Origin: Octopus vulgaris
Taxonomy: Eukaryota
Direction of reading: 5' to 3'
Length of the DNA: 64,000 bases
NCBI GenBank assembly: GCA_951406725.2
Contig: OX597836.1
Coordinates: forward strand, 22,010,001 to 22,074,000
Numbering within the stretch: position 1 is the stretch's first letter; the number at the start of each line of letters is the position of its first letter. The notes below the pieces were generated by a model. The model made no database searches. It was not told the DNA's origin and saw only the letters and a list, made by a program, of their open reading frames with translations. A program made the translations under genes and the position numbers. This document shows positions 28,194-61,335 of the stretch, in pieces.

Positions 28194-28361
28194 CTATAAC
28201 TTGGAGCTTAAACTGCATGGTCGTCGAAATTCTTGGCCTCGCTCGTGGATCCATTTGTTCATTACCCATTTGTTACCCACCAAGACTGGGCAGGCGGCGT
28301 GTCGCGTATTGAAGATTCCTTCTCCACTCTTGTGCAAGTTGTACCAGAATGCGGCTGTGCC
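28194..28361 (-). CDS. P4HA: P4HA terminal coding exon (GTAAFWYNLHKSGEGIFNTRHAACPVLVGNKWVMNKWIHERGQEFRRPCSLSSKL*)
   Basis: ttcttgatag| acceptor. Distal Fe-binding His in TRHAACPV, 2-oxoglutarate-binding Lys in GNKW, and the QEFRRPC end motif. TAG at 28194-28196. Confidence 0.96.
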   Translation of the reverse strand, partial: GTAAFWYNLHKSGEGIFNTRHAACPVLVGNKWVMNKWIHERGQEFRRPCSLSSKL

Positions 28362-30831
28362 CTATCAAGAAATAATTATAAAGTAAATCTTGTGAATTTG
28401 AAATAATCTTCAAATTACTGAAAGTGGAATCAAAGAAATGCAAGAAAATGTTTCAAAGAAAAATTATATTAATAATGTATGAGGTACAAGAAAAGATAAA
28501 ACTTTCAGCTTTTCTATAAATGTGTGGCACGTAGCACCATCCGTTTGTGGCCGTTGCCAGCCTCGCCTGGCCCCCGTGCCGGTGGCACGTAAAAAGCACC
28601 ATCCGATCGTGGCCATTGCCAGCCTTGCCGGTGGCACGTAAAAAGCACCATCCGATCGTGGCCATTGCCAGCCTTGCCGGTGGCACGTAAAAAGCACCAT
28701 CCGTCCATGGCCGTTTGCCAGCTCCGTCTGGCACGTAAAAAGCACCCACTACACTCACGGAGTGGTTGGCGTTAGGAAGGGCATCCAGCCGTAGAAACAC
28801 TGCCAGATCAGACTGGGCCTGATGCAGCCTTCTGGCTTCACAGACCCCAGTTGAACCATCCAACCCATGCTAGCATGGAAAGCGGACTCTAAATGATGAT
28901 GATGATGATTAGAGACGTGTATTCTCTGTATAGAATACACTTCATAGTGCTCAAGAAATTTGAACTTGAACAGGTAGAGGAGTAAATGTATATAATGTAT
29001 ATATAGATACAGGCATGGCTGTGTTGTTAAAAGTTTGCTTCCTGACTCCATGGTTCAGGGTTCTGTTCCACTGCATAGCACCATGGGCAAGTGTTTTCTA
29101 CAACACCTTGAAACTGTCGAAGCTTTGTGAGTGGATTTGGTACACAGAAATTGAAAGGAGTCCATTGTGTGTGTGTATGTCATCAACCTTAATTAATGTC
29201 CATTTTCCATGCTGCATAGGTTTGATAGTTTCACAGAATCTAACAGGCCACAAGACTGCACTGTGCTCCAGAGTCAACTTTGGCCAGGTTTCTATGGCTG
29301 GATGCCCTCCAAGTGTATAATGTGTGTGCGTGTGTTTGTCTGTCTACACTCAAACAGATACACAGACACTTCTTGCTTGCTTGGGCTGTAAACCCTCAGC
29401 AGCATCATAGGCATATATACACATATACTATGAGTCTTCCATAGTAGCTTTCTCTCCATAACTTACAAAGCCTTTCTGGTTTGTTTATAAATATTACATG
29501 TAACATATGGTATAATTATAAACAGGAAAAATTTTAGCCATTTCTCCACAGACTGAAAAAAATGATGAACAACCTAAATCAATTTCCACATCACTCTGAC
29601 AGTCTCCAGAGAAACAAGCAGCCAAACTGTTTATATACTCAACAAACGCAGCAGTTACTCTATGAAGGAGTTCCTATTTTGTATACCGAAAGTGTTTAAC
29701 ACTCTATAAATTATAGTATTAGACAGTTTAAGTATATATTCATTAAATTTGGATGAAATTGATGGGTGAGCATTTGGCCCAATCAGATGCACAAGGAGCC
29801 ATGTTAGTGTTGATTTGTGAGTTTGATCCTGGCTGAGGTTAGCTCATCACTTTTTGGTCATTTGTTTGTATTTAAAAATTGTCGTGTCAAATTGGAGAAT
29901 ATATATATTATTATGATTTATTATTATACAGCTATATATATATATAGGGTGCGATGGGTAAATTATTGCCATTTTATATTTTCAATTTCACACATGTACA
30001 TTGTTTTTGATTTTGTCGAATACACAGTATAGTAGGGTCAGTTGGACACTGTCTGTGAGAAAAATAGCACCTTGGTGCAATTCCTTCTGCCAGAAACTTG
30101 GAAACGACATGCTGTACTATTTGGCATTCACACTGAAAGCTATAAAAAAACAAAAATTCGAAAATGTTTGGGTATCAATCTGAGTGAGGAGGCAAGTCGA
30201 TTATATTGACCCTCCAGTATTCAACTGATACTAGGGATGAAAGGCAAAGTCAACCTTGACAGAATTTGAACTCAGAATGTGCAGACAGGTGAAACAATGA
30301 AAGTAATAATAATCCTTTCTATTATAGGCAGAAAGACTGAAATTTGAGGAGAGGCGATTAGTCGATTGATTCACTGGTACTTAATTCAATTGACCCCGAA
30401 AGGATGAAAGGCGAAGTCAACCTCAGCAGGATTTGAACTCTGGGCATAGCGACAGGTGAAATACCGCTAAGCATTTCGTCCAGCATGCTAACAGTTCTTC
30501 CAACTTGTTGCTTTAACCCTTTCGTTACCAACCCAGCTCTGGCTCTGTAGAACAAATGTCTTGTTTTTATAAGTTTTGCATCAAAATATACCACCAAACC
30601 TTAGTTGCAATTTATATTCCTAATACTAGCTTAATGATAACTAAGTTATTTTACCAAATTCTTTGTTATATTTAAAATAATTGAAAGAAACACAGAGCAT
30701 CTCAAAATAAATACAGTAACGAAAGGGTTAATGATAGTAATAATAACAGTCATAATAGCAATAGCAATAAGAACAATAATGAATAACAACAACAATAATA
30801 ATGTTTATTTGAATGATAATATATTTCTTAC

Positions 30832-30900
30832 TTTTTTGGGAAATAACTTCAGTCCAATATAAGGGAAAACTGTTGCTCCACCGCTTGGAATATCAGACAT
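30832..30900 (-). CDS. P4HA: P4HA exon (MSDIPSGGATVFPYIGLKLFPKK)
   Basis: tttctacag| acceptor and |gtaaga donor, 69 nt, phase 0/0. MSDxxxGGATVFP motif. Confidence 0.95.
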
Positions 30901-40488: not shown

Positions 40489-40554
40489 ATATATTAAAAA
40501 TGTTGCTATCCTGTTTCCAGTGCCAAGTCTCTTGAAGGCATTTTTTTCTTCTTT
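40489..40554 (-). CDS. P4HA: P4HA alternative exon C (KEEKNAFKRLGTGNRIATFLIY)
   Basis: ctttcatttataag| acceptor (AAG) and |gtaagt donor, 66 nt, phase 0/0. Closest of the three to the usual P4HA AFKxLGTGNRIAT consensus. Confidence 0.88.
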
Positions 40555-41080
40555 CTTATAAAATGAAAGATATATATCAAAGACAGATGAAAAATGTGGC
40601 ATTTTCTTCTTTTTTTTTTTTTTTTTTAAATATAATTTTTTTTTTATTATTCTGCTTTTTTTCTATTTTGCAATCGTTTTCTTCTATTTTTATGTTGCCA
40701 TTTTTTCTGGGTTTTTTTTTTTTTTTTGAAAGTTAGTGTGAAAAGATGTTACACGTGAAAAAAAAAAAAAATCAGAAATGCAAAAAAAAAAAGAAACACT
40801 TGATAAAAAAAAATTCTTTTTTAATTGCAAAAATTAATAATAATGATAATAATGGTTTCAAATTTTGGAACATGCCAGCAGTTTCCAAGAGAAGGGGATA
40901 GTCGCTAACATCGACTCCAGTATTTGACTGGTACTATATTTTATCAACCCTGAAAGGTTGAAAGGTAAAGTTTACCTCAGTGGAGTTTGAGCTGAGAATA
41001 CAAAAAGCCAGAAGAAATGCTGCTAAGCATTTTCTCCAACATGCTAACAATTCTGCCAGCTCACCATCTTAATCTTAATC

Positions 41081-41112
<32 letters not shown>

Positions 41113-42514
41113 CCTACTAAAGGCACAAGGCCTGAAATCTGGGTGAGTGGGGGTCAATCGATTACATCAACCCAGTATTCAACTGGTACTTATTTTATCG
41201 ATCCTGAAAGTGATGAAAGGCAAAGTTGACCTCAGAGGAATTTGAACTCAGAACATAAAAAAGATAGATGAAATGCCGCCAAGCATTTTACCCAGTATGC
41301 TAACGATTCTGCCAGCTTGCTGCCTTAAATAATAATAATAATAATAATAATGATAATTATTATTATTATTATTATTAAATATCAACCCCTACTCGCTTGC
41401 TCCATTTGTTTTGTTTTTCTTTCTGTGGTTTTTTTTTTTGAAATATTTTTAAAATCACAAAAGCATTGCATTGTAGTATTCCTAGATACACATACACACA
41501 CACACACACACAGCACATGGTAGAAATATTTACTTCCTCAAGTTTATATAAAAGAGGGGGAAAAAATTGATCCAAATGTTAAACCTGCTAGAAATAACAC
41601 CCAAACTTCCCTCAAGTCACATTCTTACTGCCTTTATATAATAGGGAAGGAGATATTTGATAATGCAATCCTAAATATTCTATAGCTGAAAAAAAAAAGA
41701 TAATTGATAGGGATGGTCACAAATGGAATGTCTGTCATCATTGGACTACTTGATTAGGGCTGACTTGGGGCTCTAAAGAATAACAAAGAGGTAAAAAAGT
41801 ATCCAACTAGGTGAAGAGGTAGCTATTCATTCAACTTACTATAGAAATGGTAAGACACATTACATAAAATAGTCTTAGATACATTATGTCTAACAAAAAA
41901 AAATTAAAATTCCACAGAGTAGAATGTCTTTGATCACAAGTCTGCTTGATCTTCATTAGGATGAACCTAGGGTTAAACAGCAACTCAGGAGGCTTTTAAG
42001 GTAACACTGCATTCCCTGATATTTAGATTCCATAATGTTTGTGAGTGTGTGTATGTGCATGTTTTACTATTCCCTTGTCATCAGTCACTGAAGTTGTTTA
42101 ATGTCTTTAGGAAAGGCATGAACACCACAAACTAGCATTTCTTTCATCTTTTAATAATGGTTTCTAATTTAGACACAAGGCCAGAAGTTTCAAGGGGAAG
42201 GGTGTTAGTCAATACCATTGACTCAACTCCCAGTACTTGACTTTATTTTATTGAACCATGAAATATTTGTCACATAATAATCATAATCAAAATTAAAATA
42301 TGCACTAATACAAACACAAACATCCTTGATATATGAGTGAAGTGATGCTCAGGTGAGCAGCAGATATCCTTATTGATCATTAAAGGAGTTGAAACGGGAG
42401 GCAAAGAGAGAAGGATATTTGAAGGGGAAAGAGGCAGAAAGGGTAGAGGGAGATATTCCACAAGAGATCCATTATAATAATATAAAGGTGGAGAGTACAT
42501 TGTAAAAATATCAT

Positions 42515-42529
42515 ATCTCAGCTGTTGGA
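42515..42529 (-). promoter_or_regulatory. Putative splicing selector B (pre-mRNA 5'-UCCAACAGCUGAGAU-3'), about 150 nt downstream of exon B
   Basis: 15/15 complementary to 35693-35707. Confidence 0.72.
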
Positions 42530-42678
42530 TATGTTAATTAGTTGCTACACATTTACATCAGCCAGCTAATTAGGTACGTAATGCAAAACAACAACAAAAA
42601 ATAAAGCTAGATGTTGAACAAGCAACAAGAAAGTGAGCCAATATTTTCATCGGTGGGAGCAGTTACCAAAAAACTTAC

Positions 42679-42741
42679 ATAAAAGAGGAATGTAGCTATT
42701 CTGTTTCCTACCATTTCATCAAAAGCATCTATCTCTCGTTT
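42679..42741 (-). CDS. P4HA: P4HA alternative exon B (KREIDAFDEMVGNRIATFLFY)
   Basis: atcttacag| acceptor and |gtaagt donor, 63 nt, phase 0/0. GNRIATFLFY motif. Confidence 0.88.
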
Positions 42742-44743
42742 CTGTAAGATCAATCATCATAAGGCAAAAGGAGTTGCAAAAAAAAAAAAAAAAAAAAAAA
42801 AAAGGGCTAAAAACTGAAATTCTTGAAAATTTACTGCATAAAAAAAACCACCACTTGAGTTATGTAGGAATTAAAGCATTCAAAAGTAAGAAAACCATCA
42901 TCAACACCATCATAATGGATGGCTTCTCGTCTACATCACCAACGGTACGTCAACGTTTCTCTGACCATCATGTTGGATTTAGGATGGATTAGAGACAAGC
43001 AGATGCAAAATCTTCACATAACTAACAGATAATCCTAATAACATTTTTTCTTTTCAACCTTTCTCTTTGTTTTGTTGTTTTTTTTTTTGCTCTGCACCCA
43101 CCAAAATATTTTCATATACAATTTTGTAGTATAATTAAAATTTAAAACCAAAGATGGAAACGGTACAAACTGCAAAGTAAAAATTTTTTTTTAAATTAAT
43201 TAAATTAATACATGTAAATACATGAAAATGTTCTCTAACACTTCTTTTTTTTATTAACCCTTTTGATACCAACCCACCTAAAACCACCCTTGGTTTTATG
43301 TTAACAATTCTGGTTTAAAGTGATCAAAATTAAAACTTTCCATCAAAATTTTATGTTGATTTGTGATCCAAATACCAGCTTAATAATGACTAAGTTATTT
43401 TACTAGATTCCTTGTTATTTTCTAAACTAATCAAAACAAAGTCAGTGCATTCTGACAGGAATATGGTAACAAAAGGGTTAATCAATTAGATTAACTAAAT
43501 GATTGCTTGATTAATCAATCAGTCATCAGTCTTTATTCAGCTGGTTTGTCAAAGTCCTTTTGTCACCATTCACAACCACATCAAAGTAACAAGGACATAT
43601 GATTGATGGTGTTGCAAATGGCAATGAAAAACACTGACTAACCAGCTAATTGATTGATTGATTGATTGATGAATGATCAATTAAGCTACTGGTTACGTAG
43701 GTATATAAAAACGTAATTAAAAATTTTTTTTTTCTTTTTTTGTCATTTGTATTGGTGAAATGCCCTCTTAATATTTAAGATGAAACTATTTAAGTAAAAG
43801 ACCCTTTTCTTAACCCTTTCATCACCATATTTCCATTGAAATATACAGCCTTTGTTTAAATTAATTTGAAAAATAATGGAGTATTTAGGAGTGGCTGTGT
43901 GGTAAGAAGCTTGTTTCTCGGCCACATGGTTCTAGGTTCACTCTGACTGTGTGGCACCTAGTGCAAGTGTCTTCTACTATAGCCTTGGGCCGACCAAAGC
44001 CTTGCGAATGGATTTGGTAGACAGAAACTGAAAGAAGCCTGTCGTCCCCCCACCCCATCAGTTCACAACCAATGTTAGTGTGTTTATGTCCCCATCACTT
44101 AACAGTTCAGCGAAACAAGACTGATAGAATAAGTACTAGGGCTGCTCACAAAATAAAAGCCCTGGGGTCAATTTGTTCGACTAAAAGCGGTGCTCCAGCA
44201 TGGCCACAGTCAAATGACCGGAACATGTAAATGAATAAAAAGAATTCAGCTGATGTTTGGAACATAAATTAACATGGCATTTTGATGGAAGTGTTTTAAA
44301 TCACTTTAAACCAAGAAGTTCTTTTACATTTTAATACTGGCTTTTCCATGTTTGCACGGAACAGACACACTTTCTTAGTCTCCCATTCAGCATCAAACTA
44401 ACTGTTACATCTCATTAACTCCTTGTCATTGCCTTCCATGTGTAGTTTATTTATTTTTGTAAATAATTTTGAACCTACTTCAGATTGCTATTAAGGTGCC
44501 TTTTGGTTAAAAACTGCAAAAGCAACCACAATATTCCTTTCCTTGTAACACCAAGGAGTTAATTCTATCATGTGCTGTGAAGAAAAAAATTCACAGACCA
44601 TGGAAATAAATTGGTAATTGTTGACATTGTAATGACATAACACAAAATTAGATATTATGGAAGTTGCTGAAACAATTGTAAACTAAGCAATAAACACAAT
44701 ATGCTAACTCCATTCTTTGATATTTCATTTTATATGAATGTGC

Positions 44744-44786
<43 letters not shown>

Positions 44787-44846
44787 ATGATGGTGATGAT
44801 GATATATATATATATGGATACATTCATATCCATATATTTTATGTAT

Positions 44847-44879
<33 letters not shown>

Positions 44880-44953
44880 CATATATATATACACACACAT
44901 ATAAATATATACATATATATATATATTACACACACACACACATATATATATGT

Positions 44954-44996
<43 letters not shown>

Positions 44997-45583
44997 GTAT
45001 ATGTATGTATATATATACATATACACATACAAACATGTATGTGTGTGTGTATATATATATATATATACAAGAGAAGTTGATCATTGGTATTAAAAAGTCA
45101 TTGTTTAATTGTATGCCAGAAGGTTTGCAAATCCAACAGAGGCTTCAAGATATATTTTAAGATCCACAAAGAACAGAACTTAGCCTCAGGACCAAAAAGA
45201 CATGAATATATACATATGTGTATATATGTATATATATATCTATATATATATATAGTTAATCCAAACATGAAAACACACAGAGAAAATACAACAACGCGAG
45301 GACGTGGAACAATTATAGTATTATTGGACACTCATGAAGGAAGGGAAGAAGGAGGGTTTTATGTTTCGAGCGGAGCTCTTCATCAGAAACATAGGAAAAG
45401 GAAAGATCCAAAGAAGGGAATACGGAGGAAAAAAAATCGCCAACGGTACACACGCGGTCACACATACATGTGTATATATGTATATATATATATATACATA
45501 TATATGTTTATATATGTATATATATAGAGAGAGACAGATAGATAGATAGATGATAGATAGATAGATAGATGATAGATAAATAT

Positions 45584-45614
<31 letters not shown>

Positions 45615-45809
45615 AATATATATATACATACATATATATAGATTAAAATCTATTAACCAACATAAGGTGGCAGTCCTGCGTAGGACCAAGTTACTACTTT
45701 TTAACCCTTGGAAAATATCCTTTCCAGCAGGTTATCTATACACAACCTGTGTCTGTCACACACACACATATACCTGTTTTCTGATTATATGATATATATA
45801 TATTATATA

Positions 45810-45860
<51 letters not shown>

Positions 45861-46731
45861 TTAGTGGAAAAAGCACCTCCTTATAGGTGTTATTAACATA
45901 TATATATATAAAGATATATGTGTGTGTATGTATGTATATGAAGGACTGAAATAAATTTGAATATTAGAAAGCTAAGCAGTGAGAGAAATATAATAATTTA
46001 AACACGTTCCTTCTATATTTTTTAATTTTTAAAAAAAGTAGAGGGTGGACTGATGGACCATTTCAAGGTTTGTTGAGCACTCCTCAGAGAAGCTGTACCC
46101 AGTTTCCTTCTGCAATCAACAGCATAGACTATTAGGCTACTATATAAAGCAGTCATAAATTAAGTTATCACCATAGCGGAAATATAGTTTATATAAATAT
46201 ATGAAAATTTTTCTACAACCATGTTAGATATGGTGTGCTAGTATGGACTGAAGGGAACTAAAAGAGGAATTTACAGATGAAGAAGAAAACACAGCAAGAC
46301 TACACATGGCATTTTCTGTGCAAGATAGTACGTGCATGTGTGTGTATCTATGTACTACTTTAGCAATGCCTTCGTTTGACACTAAGATTTCTACTTGTTG
46401 TTAGTGCTTCAGTTAGTAAAACTATCAGAGCTTGCAAAAGAAGCTGTTCTGTGAAAAAATGAAATGATGACATGATGGTTGTGATAGTTATGATAGCAGC
46501 AGTTAAATCTTTAGAGTAGTTTTTAGCAATAGTTAAATAGAAGCAGCACTATTCTACCTGAATTCTGGTAAGGATTAGAATGTAAAAATAAGAAAAAATG
46601 GTAAAATAATTAATAAATACAACTACAAGATAGAATTTGTAATAAAATTTGATTAGGTAACAGATTTTTCACAGACAAAGATGTGACAGTAAAAATTTCC
46701 TGCGATTATCAGAATCTGCTGTTTATTCACT

Positions 46732-47169
46732 GGATGGAAATGGAAGCACTCCGTCAGTTATGACGACGAGGGTTCCTGTTGATCCGATCAACGGAACAGC
46801 CTGCTCGTGAAATTTATGTATATATATAAATATATATATAAAAATATCCTTTTCTACTTAACGTGTAAGGGGCTGAGCACTCCACAGACACGTGCACCCT
46901 TAACGTAGTTCTCGGGGATATTCAGCGTGACACAGAGAGTGACAAGGCCAGCCCTTTGAAATACAGGTACAACAGAAACAGGAAGTGAGTGTGAGAGAAA
47001 GTTGTGGTGAAAGAGTACAGCAGGGATCACCACCATCCCCTGCCGGAGCCTCGTGGAGCTTTAGGTGTTTTCGCTCAATAAACACTCACAACGCCCGGTC
47101 TGGGAATCGAAACCGCGATCCTACGACCGCAAGTCCGCTGCCCTAACCACTGGGCCATTGCGCCTCCAC
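46732..47169 (-). mobile_element. Same tRNA-SINE family, full length, 13-bp TSD (ctgtttattcact), with an internal AT-rich insertion
   Basis: High identity to 24235-24618. TSD at 46719-46731 and 47170-47182. Confidence 0.88.
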
Positions 47170-49018
47170 CTGTTTATTCACTATTGGAATAATGAATCTC
47201 AAGGCACATCACATAAAGCTATGAATAACACTGTGTAACAAAATTTTTCTTTTAGCTTGCTAACCAACCACATGGTTCCAGGTTCAGTCCCACTGCGTGG
47301 CATCTTGGGCAAGTGTCTTCTGCTATAGCCCCGGGCCGACCAATGCCTTGTGAGTGGATTTGGTAGACGGAAACTGAAAGAAGCCTGTCGTATATATGTA
47401 TATATATATATAAGTGTGTGTGAATATGTTTGTGTGTCTGTGTTTGCTTGACAACCGATGCTGGTGTGTTTACGTCCCCGTCACTTAGCGGTTCGGCAAA
47501 AGAGACCGATAGAATAAGTACTGGGCTTACAAAGAATAAGTCCCGGGGTCGATTTGCTCGACTAAAGGTGGTGCTCCAGCATGGACGCAGTCAAATGACT
47601 GAAACAAGTAAAAAGAGTAAAAAGAGTATTGGTCAGTAAATATTATTTCCTCCTTGCTTCTATCTAGAAATCAAAGGAAATTACTTTTATTCCCTTCAGA
47701 CTTTGCTTTTGTGACCTGGACATCGATATTTTAGAACTGACCTATTTCCCATAACATTTCAGACATATTCAGCATTAAGTTGCTGAAGCAGAAATATCCT
47801 TTTCTACTCCAGGCACAAGGCTCGAAATTTTTGGGAAAGGGCCCAGTCAATTAGATTGACCCCAGTACGCAACTGGTACTTAATTTATCAACCCTGAAAG
47901 GATGAAAGATAAAGTCGACCGTGGCAGAATTTGAACTCAGAACATAAAGACAGACGAAATACTGCTAAGCATTTTGCCCAATGTGCTAACATTTCTGCCA
48001 GATCACCCCTTGCTCAAGCAGAAATATTGTTATAGCAAACATTCTGCTTAATATCACAGATTTGCTTGTCAGGTGCTTGACCATAACCACTTGAGCATGG
48101 CATATCCCTTAGTGGCCTACAATATGTATATCTCTGATCATGAGTAGGAATAGTGGGGGAGCATCATAACCATGTGTTGAGGGGGATTCCTTGGAGTTTG
48201 GATAAATGTAGCAAAAGCAAAGTCTGAAGGAAATATTGGATTGTCCGGAAAGTTTGTGCCTATTTTTAAAGGAAAGAAAAAGGTCAATAAATACTTGCCA
48301 TTACATTTTTAATCAACCAAATATGAACCATTTTGTTGCACAATGTGTCTCCATCTTTCCTTTAACTTGAAAATACCCTCTTCCCAGAATTGAGATGCCT
48401 GGGAGGGTAAGTCGAAAGATAAGCTGCTATAAATCGGCACAAATTTTCCAGACAACCCAATATTAGCCATTTTTCATACATTCTAGTGATAAGCAAATAG
48501 GGAATAAGAGTTGCCACCGAAGGACAAAATCGTGTTACACAGTGTAATAGCATGTAAATATTTTCAACTCAATATTTACATACTATTCTTTATATTTATA
48601 GCTGTTTATGTGACGTGCTGCATGAGCCAGTGTTCCAGAAATTAATTACTTCATGATGTCAACATGTTATATATAGAGGATGGAAGAAGCTCCATTTTGA
48701 AGCATTTATGTAATTTCCCTAAAGACACCAAGTGAATTGCTATGGCTGGATGCAAAAAAAGAAAAAAGAAAGAACCTTCTCAAAAAACTCTTACACAAAC
48801 CCATGAAATTCTTTGAAAACTATTGAAGATATTACATGGAGACTATCAGTAGATATCAACTAATCTTTAGTGGAGTCAAAACAGTGGAAAGAAACAAAGA
48901 AAGAAAGGTTCAAAGACAGGGCAAGAGGAGGAGTGGGAGCATATGTAGGGCTGAATGACATAGTCCCTTTGCAATGTATCCTCACATGAGGAAGGGGTGG
49001 AAAATAAAAAAAAAGTAC

Positions 49019-49032
49019 ATCTCAGCTGTTGG
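49019..49032 (-). promoter_or_regulatory. Putative splicing selector A (pre-mRNA 5'-CCAACAGCUGAGAU-3'), about 210 nt downstream of exon A
   Basis: Identical 14-mer also follows exon B. Perfectly complementary to 35694-35707. Confidence 0.7.
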
Positions 49033-49243
49033 GCCTGTTAATTATTTGGTGTTGAAATAAATAAATCCAACACCAACTACATAGCTAACGAAGCGACTAA
49101 TGAGATGGTGAACAAACAATACATCTCAGTATCTTATATATATATATATATATGTGTATATATAATATAAACATATTTTATATATTTATATATATATATA
49201 TATATATATATGGTGTGGTGGGGAGGGTTACGAAAAGACTTAC

Positions 49244-49306
49244 ATAGAAAAGAAACGTAGCTATTCTGTTTCCTACCATCTGCTCTAAGACGGTACTTTT
49301 CCTTTT
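49244..49306 (-). CDS. P4HA: P4HA alternative exon A (KRKSTVLEQMVGNRIATFLFY)
   Basis: attccag| acceptor and |gtaagt donor, 63 nt, phase 0/0. GNRIATxLxY motif, no stop codons. Confidence 0.85.
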
Positions 49307-50269
49307 CTGGAATAGCAATCACAGCAAAAAGAATAACTAAAAACTGAATATGACAAAAATTTACTTCATAAAATAAATGTAGCAAATATAGAGGAATTAC
49401 ACATGGCTCCAGATCCATTTTCTTTTTCCTTCCTTGACCATCCTGTCAGAATAGGTTGGTTTGGTTTCAGTTAAGGTAAATATATGCATCTTTATTTCAA
49501 CTAAGAAATAATTTGTTTGTTTTTTTTGTGCATGATTATTGCCCCGCAAAAAAAAAACAACAAAAAAACATGGCACCTTGTTTCATACAAAAAAATTTGA
49601 TATTAGTGAAATTTAAATTAAAAGATAATTAAAACAAAACAAAAACATATGAACTTTGAGATATAAAAAGAAATTAGATTAGAAAAGGATTTTTTATTTT
49701 TGTTATAGTTGAAATGTTATTTTAATTTTCACTGTAAAATGTTATGGAAAAAGAAAACATAACTGACAGCAAAAAATAAATAAATAAAATAAAATAAAAT
49801 AAAAAATATTAAAAAATTATAATAAAGAAAAACAGTGTTGATTATACATTGGCATTTATAATGAAACTAAACATACATATATATTTATCTATATATATAT
49901 ATATGATAGAAGTGAACTGTGAAAATGAGTACTCAACACTGCATTTTGGGATTTTCCCACACAACCATAGGTTTCATGCTCTGGAATTCACAATTTTCAA
50001 GTGCTCTACATATAAAATAGTGGTAAAAGTGTTTCCATTTTATATGTCAAACATTTGAAAATTGTGAATTCTAAAGCATAGAACCAAAGGTTGTGAAGGA
50101 AAATCATAAATAAAAAATATATATAACCTACCGTTGATAAGGCCAAAAGAGTTTGAAATCGTGCTGGTGATAACACACAGGAAAACAAAATGAGATATTT
50201 TCTCTTGGTAAAACCGCTGTATCATGTGTTCTAACACATCGACTTTTAAATGGTGAATACTTTACTATA

Positions 50270-51813: not shown

Positions 51814-51867
51814 CCTTGCATAGTCAAAATGAGGTTCATAATGGCCACCAATTCCATAGTTAGCAAC
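51814..51867 (-). CDS. P4HA: P4HA exon with the Fe(II)-binding HxD motif (VANYGIGGHYEPHFDYAR)
   Basis: ttaccacag| acceptor and |gtgagt donor, 54 nt, phase 0/0. Canonical VANYGxGGxYEPHFD. Confidence 0.96.
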
Positions 51868-54843: not shown

Positions 54844-54943
54844 CTGAAGCTCCTCAGCAGTTTCCACATTGAGACCTGTCACAGTTCCAATTCTCTTGTT
54901 GATTCTGGACAAAATTGGGTGGTCTGCATCTTTCAACCAAGCA
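54844..54943 (-). CDS. P4HA: P4HA exon (S-AWLKDADHPILSRINKRIGTVTGLNVETAEELQ)
   Basis: tttgcag| acceptor and |gtgagt donor, 100 nt, phase 2/0. SAWL...TGL...AEELQ motif. Confidence 0.95.
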
Positions 54944-58071: not shown

Positions 58072-58142
58072 CTTTTACTGATACGGTATGTTGCTGTTTC
58101 TAATTTTCCTGTTACTGAATTCTGTACTGTTGCTCTGTTTAG
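58072..58142 (-). CDS. P4HA: P4HA 71-nt exon (LNRATVQNSVTGKLETATYRISK-S)
   Basis: tttccag| acceptor and |gtaagt donor, phase 0/2. LxRATV...YRISKS motif. Not in the ORF track. Confidence 0.95.
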
Positions 58143-59809
58143 CTGGAAAAACAGAAGAAAAGACAAAGATATCAGAAATATAATAATATATATATATTTA
58201 TGTATATGTGTGTGTATTTTTTCTCCACTCTGTCTCTTCATATCCTAGGTGCTGTTCACAGCTTCTGTGTGTGTGAATATATATATATATATATATATAT
58301 ATCAACATCAGATAAAAATCAAATGGAAATTGTAGTTGGATACCTGTGCCGGTGGCATGTAAAAAGCACCATCCGAACATAGCCGATGCCAGTGCCGCCT
58401 TGGCTGGCTTCCATGCCGGTGGCATGTAAAAAGCACCAACCGATCGTGGCCATTGCCAGCCTCCCCTGGCACGTAAAAAGCACCCACTACACTCACGGAA
58501 TGGTTGGTGTTAGGAAGGGCATCTAGCTGTAGAAACACTGCCAGATCAAACTGGAGCCTGGTGCAGCCTCCTGGCTTCCCAGACTCCGGTTGAACCATCC
58601 AACCCATGCTAGCATGGAAAACTGACGTTAAACGATGATGATGATGATGATGATGAAATATATATATGTATATATATATATATGTGTGTGTGTGTGTGCG
58701 TGTAAAAAATACAAAATGGGACAAGAACGCAAAACATCCAGACAGTTAGGTGATACAAGAAAGGGACAACAAAACATCCAGACAGACAATACAAGGAAAA
58801 CAAGGACGGGTCATTTGGAGTTTTCTTTCCTCACTCGAGTTCCAGATTATCTTTGCAATTTCAGCTGATTATACTCGAGATTCCTCCAGTCTGGCCAGCC
58901 CCAAGGAAAAACTAAGCTAAGAGCATTAGATTCCTTGGAAGAAAACAGCGAATGTGAAACTGGTAACCCAGACACTTCTTTTTATCTCTCTCCAATTTTA
59001 TTCTCTTTGTTTTCTTTCCTCATTCTGTTCTTTTGAAGAACGTAGACTCATAACATCAAAGACTTCTCCATTTTTCCTGAGCATCAAACTAATACACCTC
59101 TTTGTTGTTCTCTCACCGGTCTATGTCTTTGGTTTTTGTACATTTGAACCACACACATATATAGCTATGTAAACACACACACACACACACATCGGAATTG
59201 AAATCGATCAACATCAATGGAAATTGTAGCTGTGATACCAGTGCCAGTGGCACGTAAGAGAACCATCCGAACGTGGCCGTTGCCAGCGCCGCCCCGACTG
59301 GCCTTGCGCCGGTGGCACATAAAAAGCATCATCCATTCATGGCCGTTGGCAGCCTCGCCTGGCCCCCGTGCCGGTGGCACGTAAAAAGCACCATCTGATC
59401 GTGGCCGTTTGCCAGCCTCGTCTGGCACCTGTGCCGGTGGCACGTAAAAAGCACCCACTACACTCACGAGGAGTTTGGCATTAGGAAGGGCATCCAGCCG
59501 TAGAAACATTGCCAGATCAGACTGGGCCTGGTGCAGCCTTCTGGCTTCCCAGACCCCAGTTGAACCGTCCAACCCATGATAGCATGGAAAGAAAGCAGAC
59601 GCTAAACGATGATGACAATGATGATGATAACATATACATATATATGAGAGAGAAACAGAGAGAGTAAGCCAAATAGACAGACAAATAGCAATACTAAGAC
59701 AGACAGACAAATGGAGAGAGAGAGAGAAAGAGGAGAGGGTTTAAGGAAACAAGATATGAAGATTAAGAGATTAAAAAAAAATAAGATTCATCTTCTACAT
59801 GGCACCTAC

Positions 59810-59983
59810 CTTTGGTGTGGCAAAACTCTTCACAAAGTTCATTTCGTTGTCTGAAAGGATATCATGATAAACTACTAGCCAGGGATCGAAGTGCATCTCT
59901 TCCTCCTTGACTCGGGCTAAATACAAATATGGGTGGCCATACCAGGCATACTTGCACTTTAGTTTGTGGGCATTTTTGATTGG
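59810..59983 (-). CDS. P4HA: P4HA exon (PIKNAHKLKCKY...KEEEMHFDPWLVVYHDILSDNE...ATPK)
   Basis: ttttacag| acceptor and |gtaggt donor, 174 nt, phase 0/0. LxCxY and KEE..P..YHD motifs of P4HA. Confidence 0.95.
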
Positions 59984-61144: not shown

Positions 61145-61335
61145 CATAATATCTTCCCCTCGGCACAGGCTCTCATATGCATAGAACTCTTCAGAATTAC
61201 GGTAGTCATCGATGTTACGAGGATTCTTCACTCGTTGTAATCCAGTATCGCCACGTTTTTGTCCTTTAAATTTTTCGTCTTCAAGCATTCTTTCAAAGTA
61301 GAATTTATTATTTTTGGCTCTCTGGTGACTAGGGT
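61145..61335 (-). CDS. P4HA: Prolyl 4-hydroxylase alpha subunit exon (DPSHQRAKNNKFYFE...YESLCRGEDIM)
   Basis: ttctccag| acceptor and |gtgagt donor, 191 nt, phase 1/0. Contains the P4HA DPxHxRAxxN and YExLCRGE motifs. Upstream exons were not seen in the window and presumably lie beyond 64000. Confidence 0.93.

Follow-up and report, generated by a model that had tools for sequence, protein, structure and literature searches.

A predicted tandem cluster of three alternative substrate-loop exons in a collagen prolyl 4-hydroxylase gene of Octopus vulgaris

INTRODUCTION

Among the described cases of alternative splicing in the alpha subunits (P4HA) of collagen prolyl 4-hydroxylases (C-P4Hs), the closest to the one reported here is the exon pair 12a/12b of human and mouse P4HA2 (Nokelainen et al. 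2001, as cited in PMC9676403), whose human event is catalogued as event 153 and dated to Vertebrata in the supplement of PMC8373072. According to excerpts of PMC9676403, the splice variants of C-P4H-II alter the betaII-betaIII loop, comprising Arg435-Gly448 of human P4HA2, and those of C-P4H-I alter the hairpin loop. The event involving the hairpin-loop exons 9/10 of vertebrate P4HA1 is dated to Bilateria in the supplements of PMC8373072 and PMC9741552. The preference of these enzymes for the residue at position X of X-Pro-Gly has been tied, through docking and isoenzyme kinetics, to the hairpin and betaII-betaIII loops and to the charge of the tunnel (excerpts of bioRxiv 2023.06.28.546674).

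Here, we analyze a stretch of 64,000 nucleotides from the genome of Octopus vulgaris (contig OX597836.1, positions 22,010,001 to 22,074,000, hereafter referred to as the window), which holds the C-terminal part of a P4HA gene on its minus strand. Between the exon encoding the HxD iron-binding motif and the next constitutive exon lie three homologous exons, A, B, and C, which an earlier note made from the DNA sequence alone had singled out as paralogous alternatives. In the mostly open-access literature that we covered, we found no description of this octopus cluster, nor of the splicing of the loop exon in cephalopods or other invertebrates. The kind of event is itself known; the novelty lies in the third exon, whose loop charge is reversed, in the broad distribution among invertebrates, and in the pairing with alternative exons in the TPR domain.

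RESULTS AND DISCUSSION

Three tandem loop exons in an octopus P4HA gene

Exons A, B, and C each have an AG acceptor upstream and a GTAAGT donor downstream and are in phase 0/0, in agreement with the earlier note, and their positions are reported in Table 1 together with those of the other features. Lying side by side, homologous, nearly equal in length, in the same phase, and with their splice sites intact, they form a tandem cluster. A profile of the loop exon built from 45 P4HA proteins scored 48, 40, and 34 bits on A, B, and C, respectively, and at most 1.1 bits in the rest of the 64 kb; given this gap, the matches are not due to chance and there is no fourth copy in the window. The introns separating, in order, the HxD exon, A, B, C, and the downstream exon measure 2507, 6502, 2124, and 9588 nt. 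The 5' halves had been described as differing in charge and length; A and B are in fact equally long and only C is longer, by one residue.

The gene is, judging by its sequence, an animal collagen P4HA, as had been proposed. The window encodes exactly the C-terminal part of protein P0013, a single polypeptide that comprises an N-terminal, a peptide-substrate-binding, and a catalytic domain, has the domains PF08336, PF23558, and PF13640, and matches the structures 4BTA/2YQ8, 6EVL, and 7ZSC. Residues H426, D428, H496, and K506 are invariant in 45 of 45 aligned P4HA proteins; we take the first three to be the HxD...H iron ligands and the last to be the 2-oxoglutarate lysine.

The loop exons encode the betaII-betaIII loop and the strand that follows it. 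In the alignment with 7ZSC, their variable half coincides with Arg435-Gly448 of human P4HA2, which bears out the assignment of this segment to the substrate-contacting loop. Exons A and B retain G443, N444, R445, A447, T448, and Y452, six columns of the conserved half that are invariant in all 45 aligned proteins.

The expectation that vertebrate P4HA2 has an alternative exon pair at the same position was likewise borne out, since the boundaries match those of 12a/12b. The octopus exons share with the human and mouse pair the exon boundaries, the phase, and the betaII-betaIII loop, as well as the presence of both a short and a long form (20 and 22 aa in P4HA2). Exon C is close to human 12b, whereas A and B are unlike 12a in the loop. 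A further difference is that the octopus has three exons at kilobase spacing, while the two human exons are, according to their coordinates, 49 nt apart; human P4HA2 presumably lies on the minus strand, in which case the short exon precedes the long one. Because the human event has been dated to Vertebrata, the octopus and human exons are at most candidate orthologues. Exons 9/10 of vertebrate P4HA1 offer a second parallel, in that tandem duplicated exons alter a substrate-binding loop in the same enzyme family, but a different exon is concerned, and in octopus the hairpin exon has only one copy in the window.

TABLE 1 Features of the P4HA gene in the window (positions counted from its first nucleotide)
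Feature	Position	Strand	Remarks
Loop exon A	49306-49244	minus	63 nt, 21 aa, KRKSTVLEQMVGNRIATFLFY; loop net charge +2
Loop exon B	42741-42679	minus	63 nt, 21 aa, KREIDAFDEMVGNRIATFLFY; loop net charge -2
Loop exon C	40554-40489	minus	66 nt, 22 aa, KEEKNAFKRLGTGNRIATFLIY; conserved long AFxxLGTG type; loop net charge +2
Intron block upstream of A	49326..49404	minus	Similar to block upstream of B
Intron block upstream of B	42793..42879	minus	Pairs with block upstream of A
Constitutive linker exon	61145..61335	minus	Gene runs on past the window end
Constitutive exon, start of catalytic domain	59810..59983	minus	
Hairpin-loop exon	58072..58142	minus	Single copy; its counterpart in vertebrate P4HA1 is duplicated
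Constitutive catalytic-domain exon	54844..54943	minus	
Constitutive upstream exon with HxD iron-binding motif	51814..51867	minus	Single copy in the window
Constitutive downstream exon	30832..30900	minus	Single copy
Last coding exon with stop	28194..28361	minus	

Annotated isoforms in octopus species

All three exons are already publicly annotated in the sister species Octopus sinensis, whose RefSeq isoforms X1 to X5 (XP_029649805-808 and XP_036368550) are computed models of which two contain C, one B, one A, and one none of the three. When the window exons from 59983 on are spliced in silico, the product with A equals X4 (P0124) and the product with B equals X3 (P0122), each over 232 of 232 residues; the product with C equals P0013 and P0121 (233/233), and that without any loop exon equals X5 (P0123; 211/211). 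None of the five Octopus members of the P4HA protein cluster includes two loop exons together, and one of the five skips them all. The prediction that at least one exon would likely escape automated annotation therefore fails for O. sinensis, where RefSeq carries all three and the skip form; for O. vulgaris, in contrast, both accessions in the cluster have exon C alone. RefSeq isoforms of this type usually rest on RNA-seq introns, and we regard it as very probable that the three isoforms are real.

Exons A and B also occur in models of the O. bimaculoides type, each with 20 of 21 residues identical (A in P0252 and B in P0325, the latter from O. bimaculoides), against a background identity of 92.9% for the surrounding protein. 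P0252 and P0325 are identical across their 197 shared upstream residues, and exon C was not seen for O. bimaculoides among the records examined. Both models end after the exon downstream of the loop exon, which probably reflects an assembly gap.

Isoforms that skip the loop exon in frame are annotated not only in octopus (P0123) but also in sea urchin and lizard (the other records being P0303 and P0072). Such isoforms have lost a core strand and, considering the six invariant columns in the conserved half, are probably inactive.

Selection on the loop exons and relation of A to B

The earlier note had suggested purifying selection on the 3' halves. We observed in codons 10 to 21 of A and B four synonymous and no nonsynonymous differences (8.5 and 27.5 sites, respectively; Fisher p 0.001-0.002), and the 3' halves of these two exons are under purifying selection. 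At the protein level, the last 12 residues are identical and 7 consecutive loop residues differ. The proportion of synonymous differences (pS) is 0.47 in the 3' half and 0.77 overall, which is near saturation, and for this reason no positive selection on the loop of A and B can be demonstrated.

The introns upstream of A and B contain similar blocks (Table 1), whose local alignment score of 58 is the highest among 45 exon pairs (the next being 32) and was reached by none of 1000 dinucleotide shuffles. The similarity of the downstream introns is weaker, with 3 of 1000 shuffles reaching its score and another exon pair ranking higher. This shared flanking similarity, mainly upstream, suggests that A and B are sister copies. 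The upstream block may be a shared splicing element.

Distribution across animals

We surveyed database gene models, comprising the best 120 matches of two larger searches and 30 clusters, for the exon at the loop position. Among the models examined, a short and a long exon were found in 11 other molluscs, i.e., Sepia pharaonis, Biomphalaria, Physella, Babylonia, Haliotis rufescens (where the short-exon model is incomplete), Ruditapes, two oysters, two Mytilus, and Sinanodonta. The same pair is present in the nemertean Lineus, in Branchiostoma (amphioxus), in the echinoderms Strongylocentrotus and Asterias, in Trichinella, and in fugu P4HA2. These invertebrate pairs resemble the octopus cluster in position and length contrast but have one short exon each, and two short exons with one long exon were found only in octopus among the sets examined. 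Lingula, however, has two 21-aa forms in one gene and no long form among its 11 models, so that the triple may not be confined to octopus. The tick has a different second exon, positioned after the long one. A single form was seen in, e.g., Argonauta, Aplysia, Littorina, Argopecten, lampreys, and Photinus (long) and in Vanessa (short), which may reflect annotation depth. Wherever both forms are joined in one model, the short exon precedes the long one (five phyla), with the tick reversed; five of six is not a significant bias (two-sided p ~0.2).

The phylogeny against the vertebrate P4HA2 exons that the earlier note had proposed was computed from 52 exon peptides over 22 columns, and it rejects none of six hypotheses bearing on ancestry versus convergence and on the origin of A and B. 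Only 5 of 48 branches are starred, and all six approximately unbiased (AU) tests are nonsignificant (p 0.19-0.47); at this alignment length, the hypotheses left standing include a single clade of all short exons (0.32), of the fugu short and long exons (0.47), and of all cephalopod exons (0.25). Exon C groups with the long exons of Sepia and Argonauta (support 95/91), and molluscan short and long exons are weakly separated. In most molluscan short exons the second residue is basic and ATFL is present, even beside an ATWL long exon (oysters, Mytilus, Sinanodonta), and this common signature suggests, at the level of sequence, that the molluscan short exons are of one origin. In fugu, instead, the short and long exons have a common 3' end, suggesting a separate vertebrate origin or a co-evolution of the two exons. 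The spread of the pair over several phyla puts in question the published dating to Vertebrata.

Proposed exon choice and alternative explanations

We consider it likely that the locus is a tandem-duplicated, alternatively spliced cluster, in which a normal transcript would carry one of A, B, and C to link the HxD exon with the one downstream. The invariant 3' half would supply a core beta strand in every case, and the variable 5' half would exchange the betaII-betaIII loop, which closes over the substrate peptide. Exon C would be the conserved long form and A and B two copies of the short form present once in other molluscs, duplicated from one another and subsequently diverged in the loop only. 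The purpose would likely be to tune the preference for X-Pro-Gly or other peptides, or the kinetics, from a single gene, and the choice would probably be made by splicing regulators acting on shared weak acceptors, possibly in a leaky manner.

How the inclusion of one exon per transcript would come about was approached by elimination. Enforcement by the reading frame was rejected, as double inclusions are in frame and without stops, and so was steric enforcement through spacing, as the introns between the exons measure 6502 and 2124 nt versus 49 nt in the human pair. A search for docking or selector RNA pairing, in which eight flank or exon sequences were compared with 27 kb of pre-mRNA, gave best duplexes within or slightly beyond those of five shuffled queries and no partner common to A, B, and C among the top matches. 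With frame, spacing, and docking unsupported, the choice by splicing regulators remains as the proposed explanation, and one exon per transcript would be the rule.

The two rejected modes of enforcement also weigh against the proposed exclusive choice, and so do several other observations. The A, B, C, and skip isoforms are known here as computed gene models, not from reads. Of 24 listed run entries, 20 contain the stretch of the last exon, but 14 of these are merely presumed to be RNA and none is recorded as such, and they do not count as evidence here. Tandem inclusion is modeled in Lineus, sea urchin, oyster, and tick, in addition to the skip form of O. sinensis. The long exon is found in four of five Logan-derived cuttlefish-like proteins, so the short forms may be minor. 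The descent of A and B from one another is without support in the 22-column protein tree, where their clade is nevertheless unrejected (AU p 0.36). Finally, loop charge is a crude proxy for preference: the values for Xenopus P4HA1 (-2) and human P4HA2 12b (-1) are little apart, though the isoenzymes prefer opposite X residues, and loop charge alone need not set the preference.

Part of this evidence would also fit exons that are spliced but nearly equivalent, with C doing the work and A and B being low-level, fold-compatible forms without a distinct substrate role. The dominance of long forms among annotated and Logan-derived proteins and the fast divergence of the short-exon loop between lineages agree with such a scenario, as does the similar expression of two P4HA1 transcripts, for which a similar function was suggested (excerpts of PMC12525012). 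We nonetheless deem it unlikely: from one octopus species to another, A and B each show a single change in 21 residues, with the loop half thus conserved, and 11 further mollusc species as well as other phyla have kept a short alternative exon.

Much less probable still is that the short exons lower or abolish activity, yielding a subunit of low activity, or a decoy, within the alpha2beta2 tetramer, comparable to the skip form without the core strand. An annotated skip-all isoform (P0123) and the deviation of exon A from the AF motif of most forms could be read in this way, but A and B keep the six residues invariant in 45 of 45 proteins, and human variant 12b served as an active enzyme construct according to excerpts of PMC9676403. 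The idea of A or B as a pseudo-exon in decay or an artifactual duplicate of the assembly draws on the similarity of their flanking introns and on the listed O. vulgaris accessions, which contain C only. It is largely refuted and the least credible of the three, given that A and B are separated by 7 residue differences and by synonymous sites close to saturation, that dN (nonsynonymous divergence) is 0 in the 3' half, and that both exons are intact in the O. sinensis and O. bimaculoides-type models. The alternatively spliced cluster is the explanation that we favor.

Remainder of the gene and its relatives

No duplicates of the hairpin, HxD, or other tested P4HA exons were detected within the 64-kb window. 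The last exon is 100% identical to O. vulgaris/O. sinensis P4HA (P0013). In other animals the HxD exon has alternative copies, as in models of vertebrate P4HA1, lamprey, and Trichinella (P0033/P0034, P0081, P0357/P0358, P0008, P0015), and, going by the gene models, four different exons of P4HA genes are duplicated in one animal or another. One close P4HA gene is present among the genome matches listed. The other listed matches are 29 to 46% identical and belong to divergent P4HA-like genes on contig C10, at 37.81-37.87 Mb and 0.90 Mb, where apparently more than one is clustered. A GC-rich, tandemly repeated interspersed element has copies in the P4HA introns at window positions 28520-28700 and 59340-59520 and is probably an ordinary octopus repeat.

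Beyond the window end, the same gene contains a further duplicated pair of 161-nt exons, starting at 22093546 and 22088649 on C23 (minus strand). They encode part of the peptide-substrate-binding (TPR) domain, and the O. sinensis isoforms X2 and X1 make use of them. In Haliotis, oyster, Ruditapes, Sinanodonta, and cuttlefish-like proteins, too, this TPR segment comes in two alternative forms. With two TPR-domain exons and three loop exons, one gene could yield up to six forms.

Implications for collagen hydroxylation

For the X-Pro-Gly site preference of collagen P4Hs, the loop model is based on docking and on isoenzymes that differ throughout their sequence. The octopus forms with A, B, and C differ in one exon, and those with A and B in 7 loop residues of opposite net charge, which makes them a ready-made controlled test; whether the three in fact differ in substrate preference we consider evenly balanced. 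More tentatively, and with the odds somewhat against it, splicing of the loop exon may be bilaterian-wide, whether ancestral or reinvented several times at this exon, rather than confined to vertebrates as published, and the octopus gene with its two TPR and three loop exons may produce different X-Pro-Gly selectivities via the charge-reversed A and B. If this is true, a single octopus gene would replace the gene paralogues of vertebrates and would provide a natural loop-swap test of collagen hydroxylation specificity.

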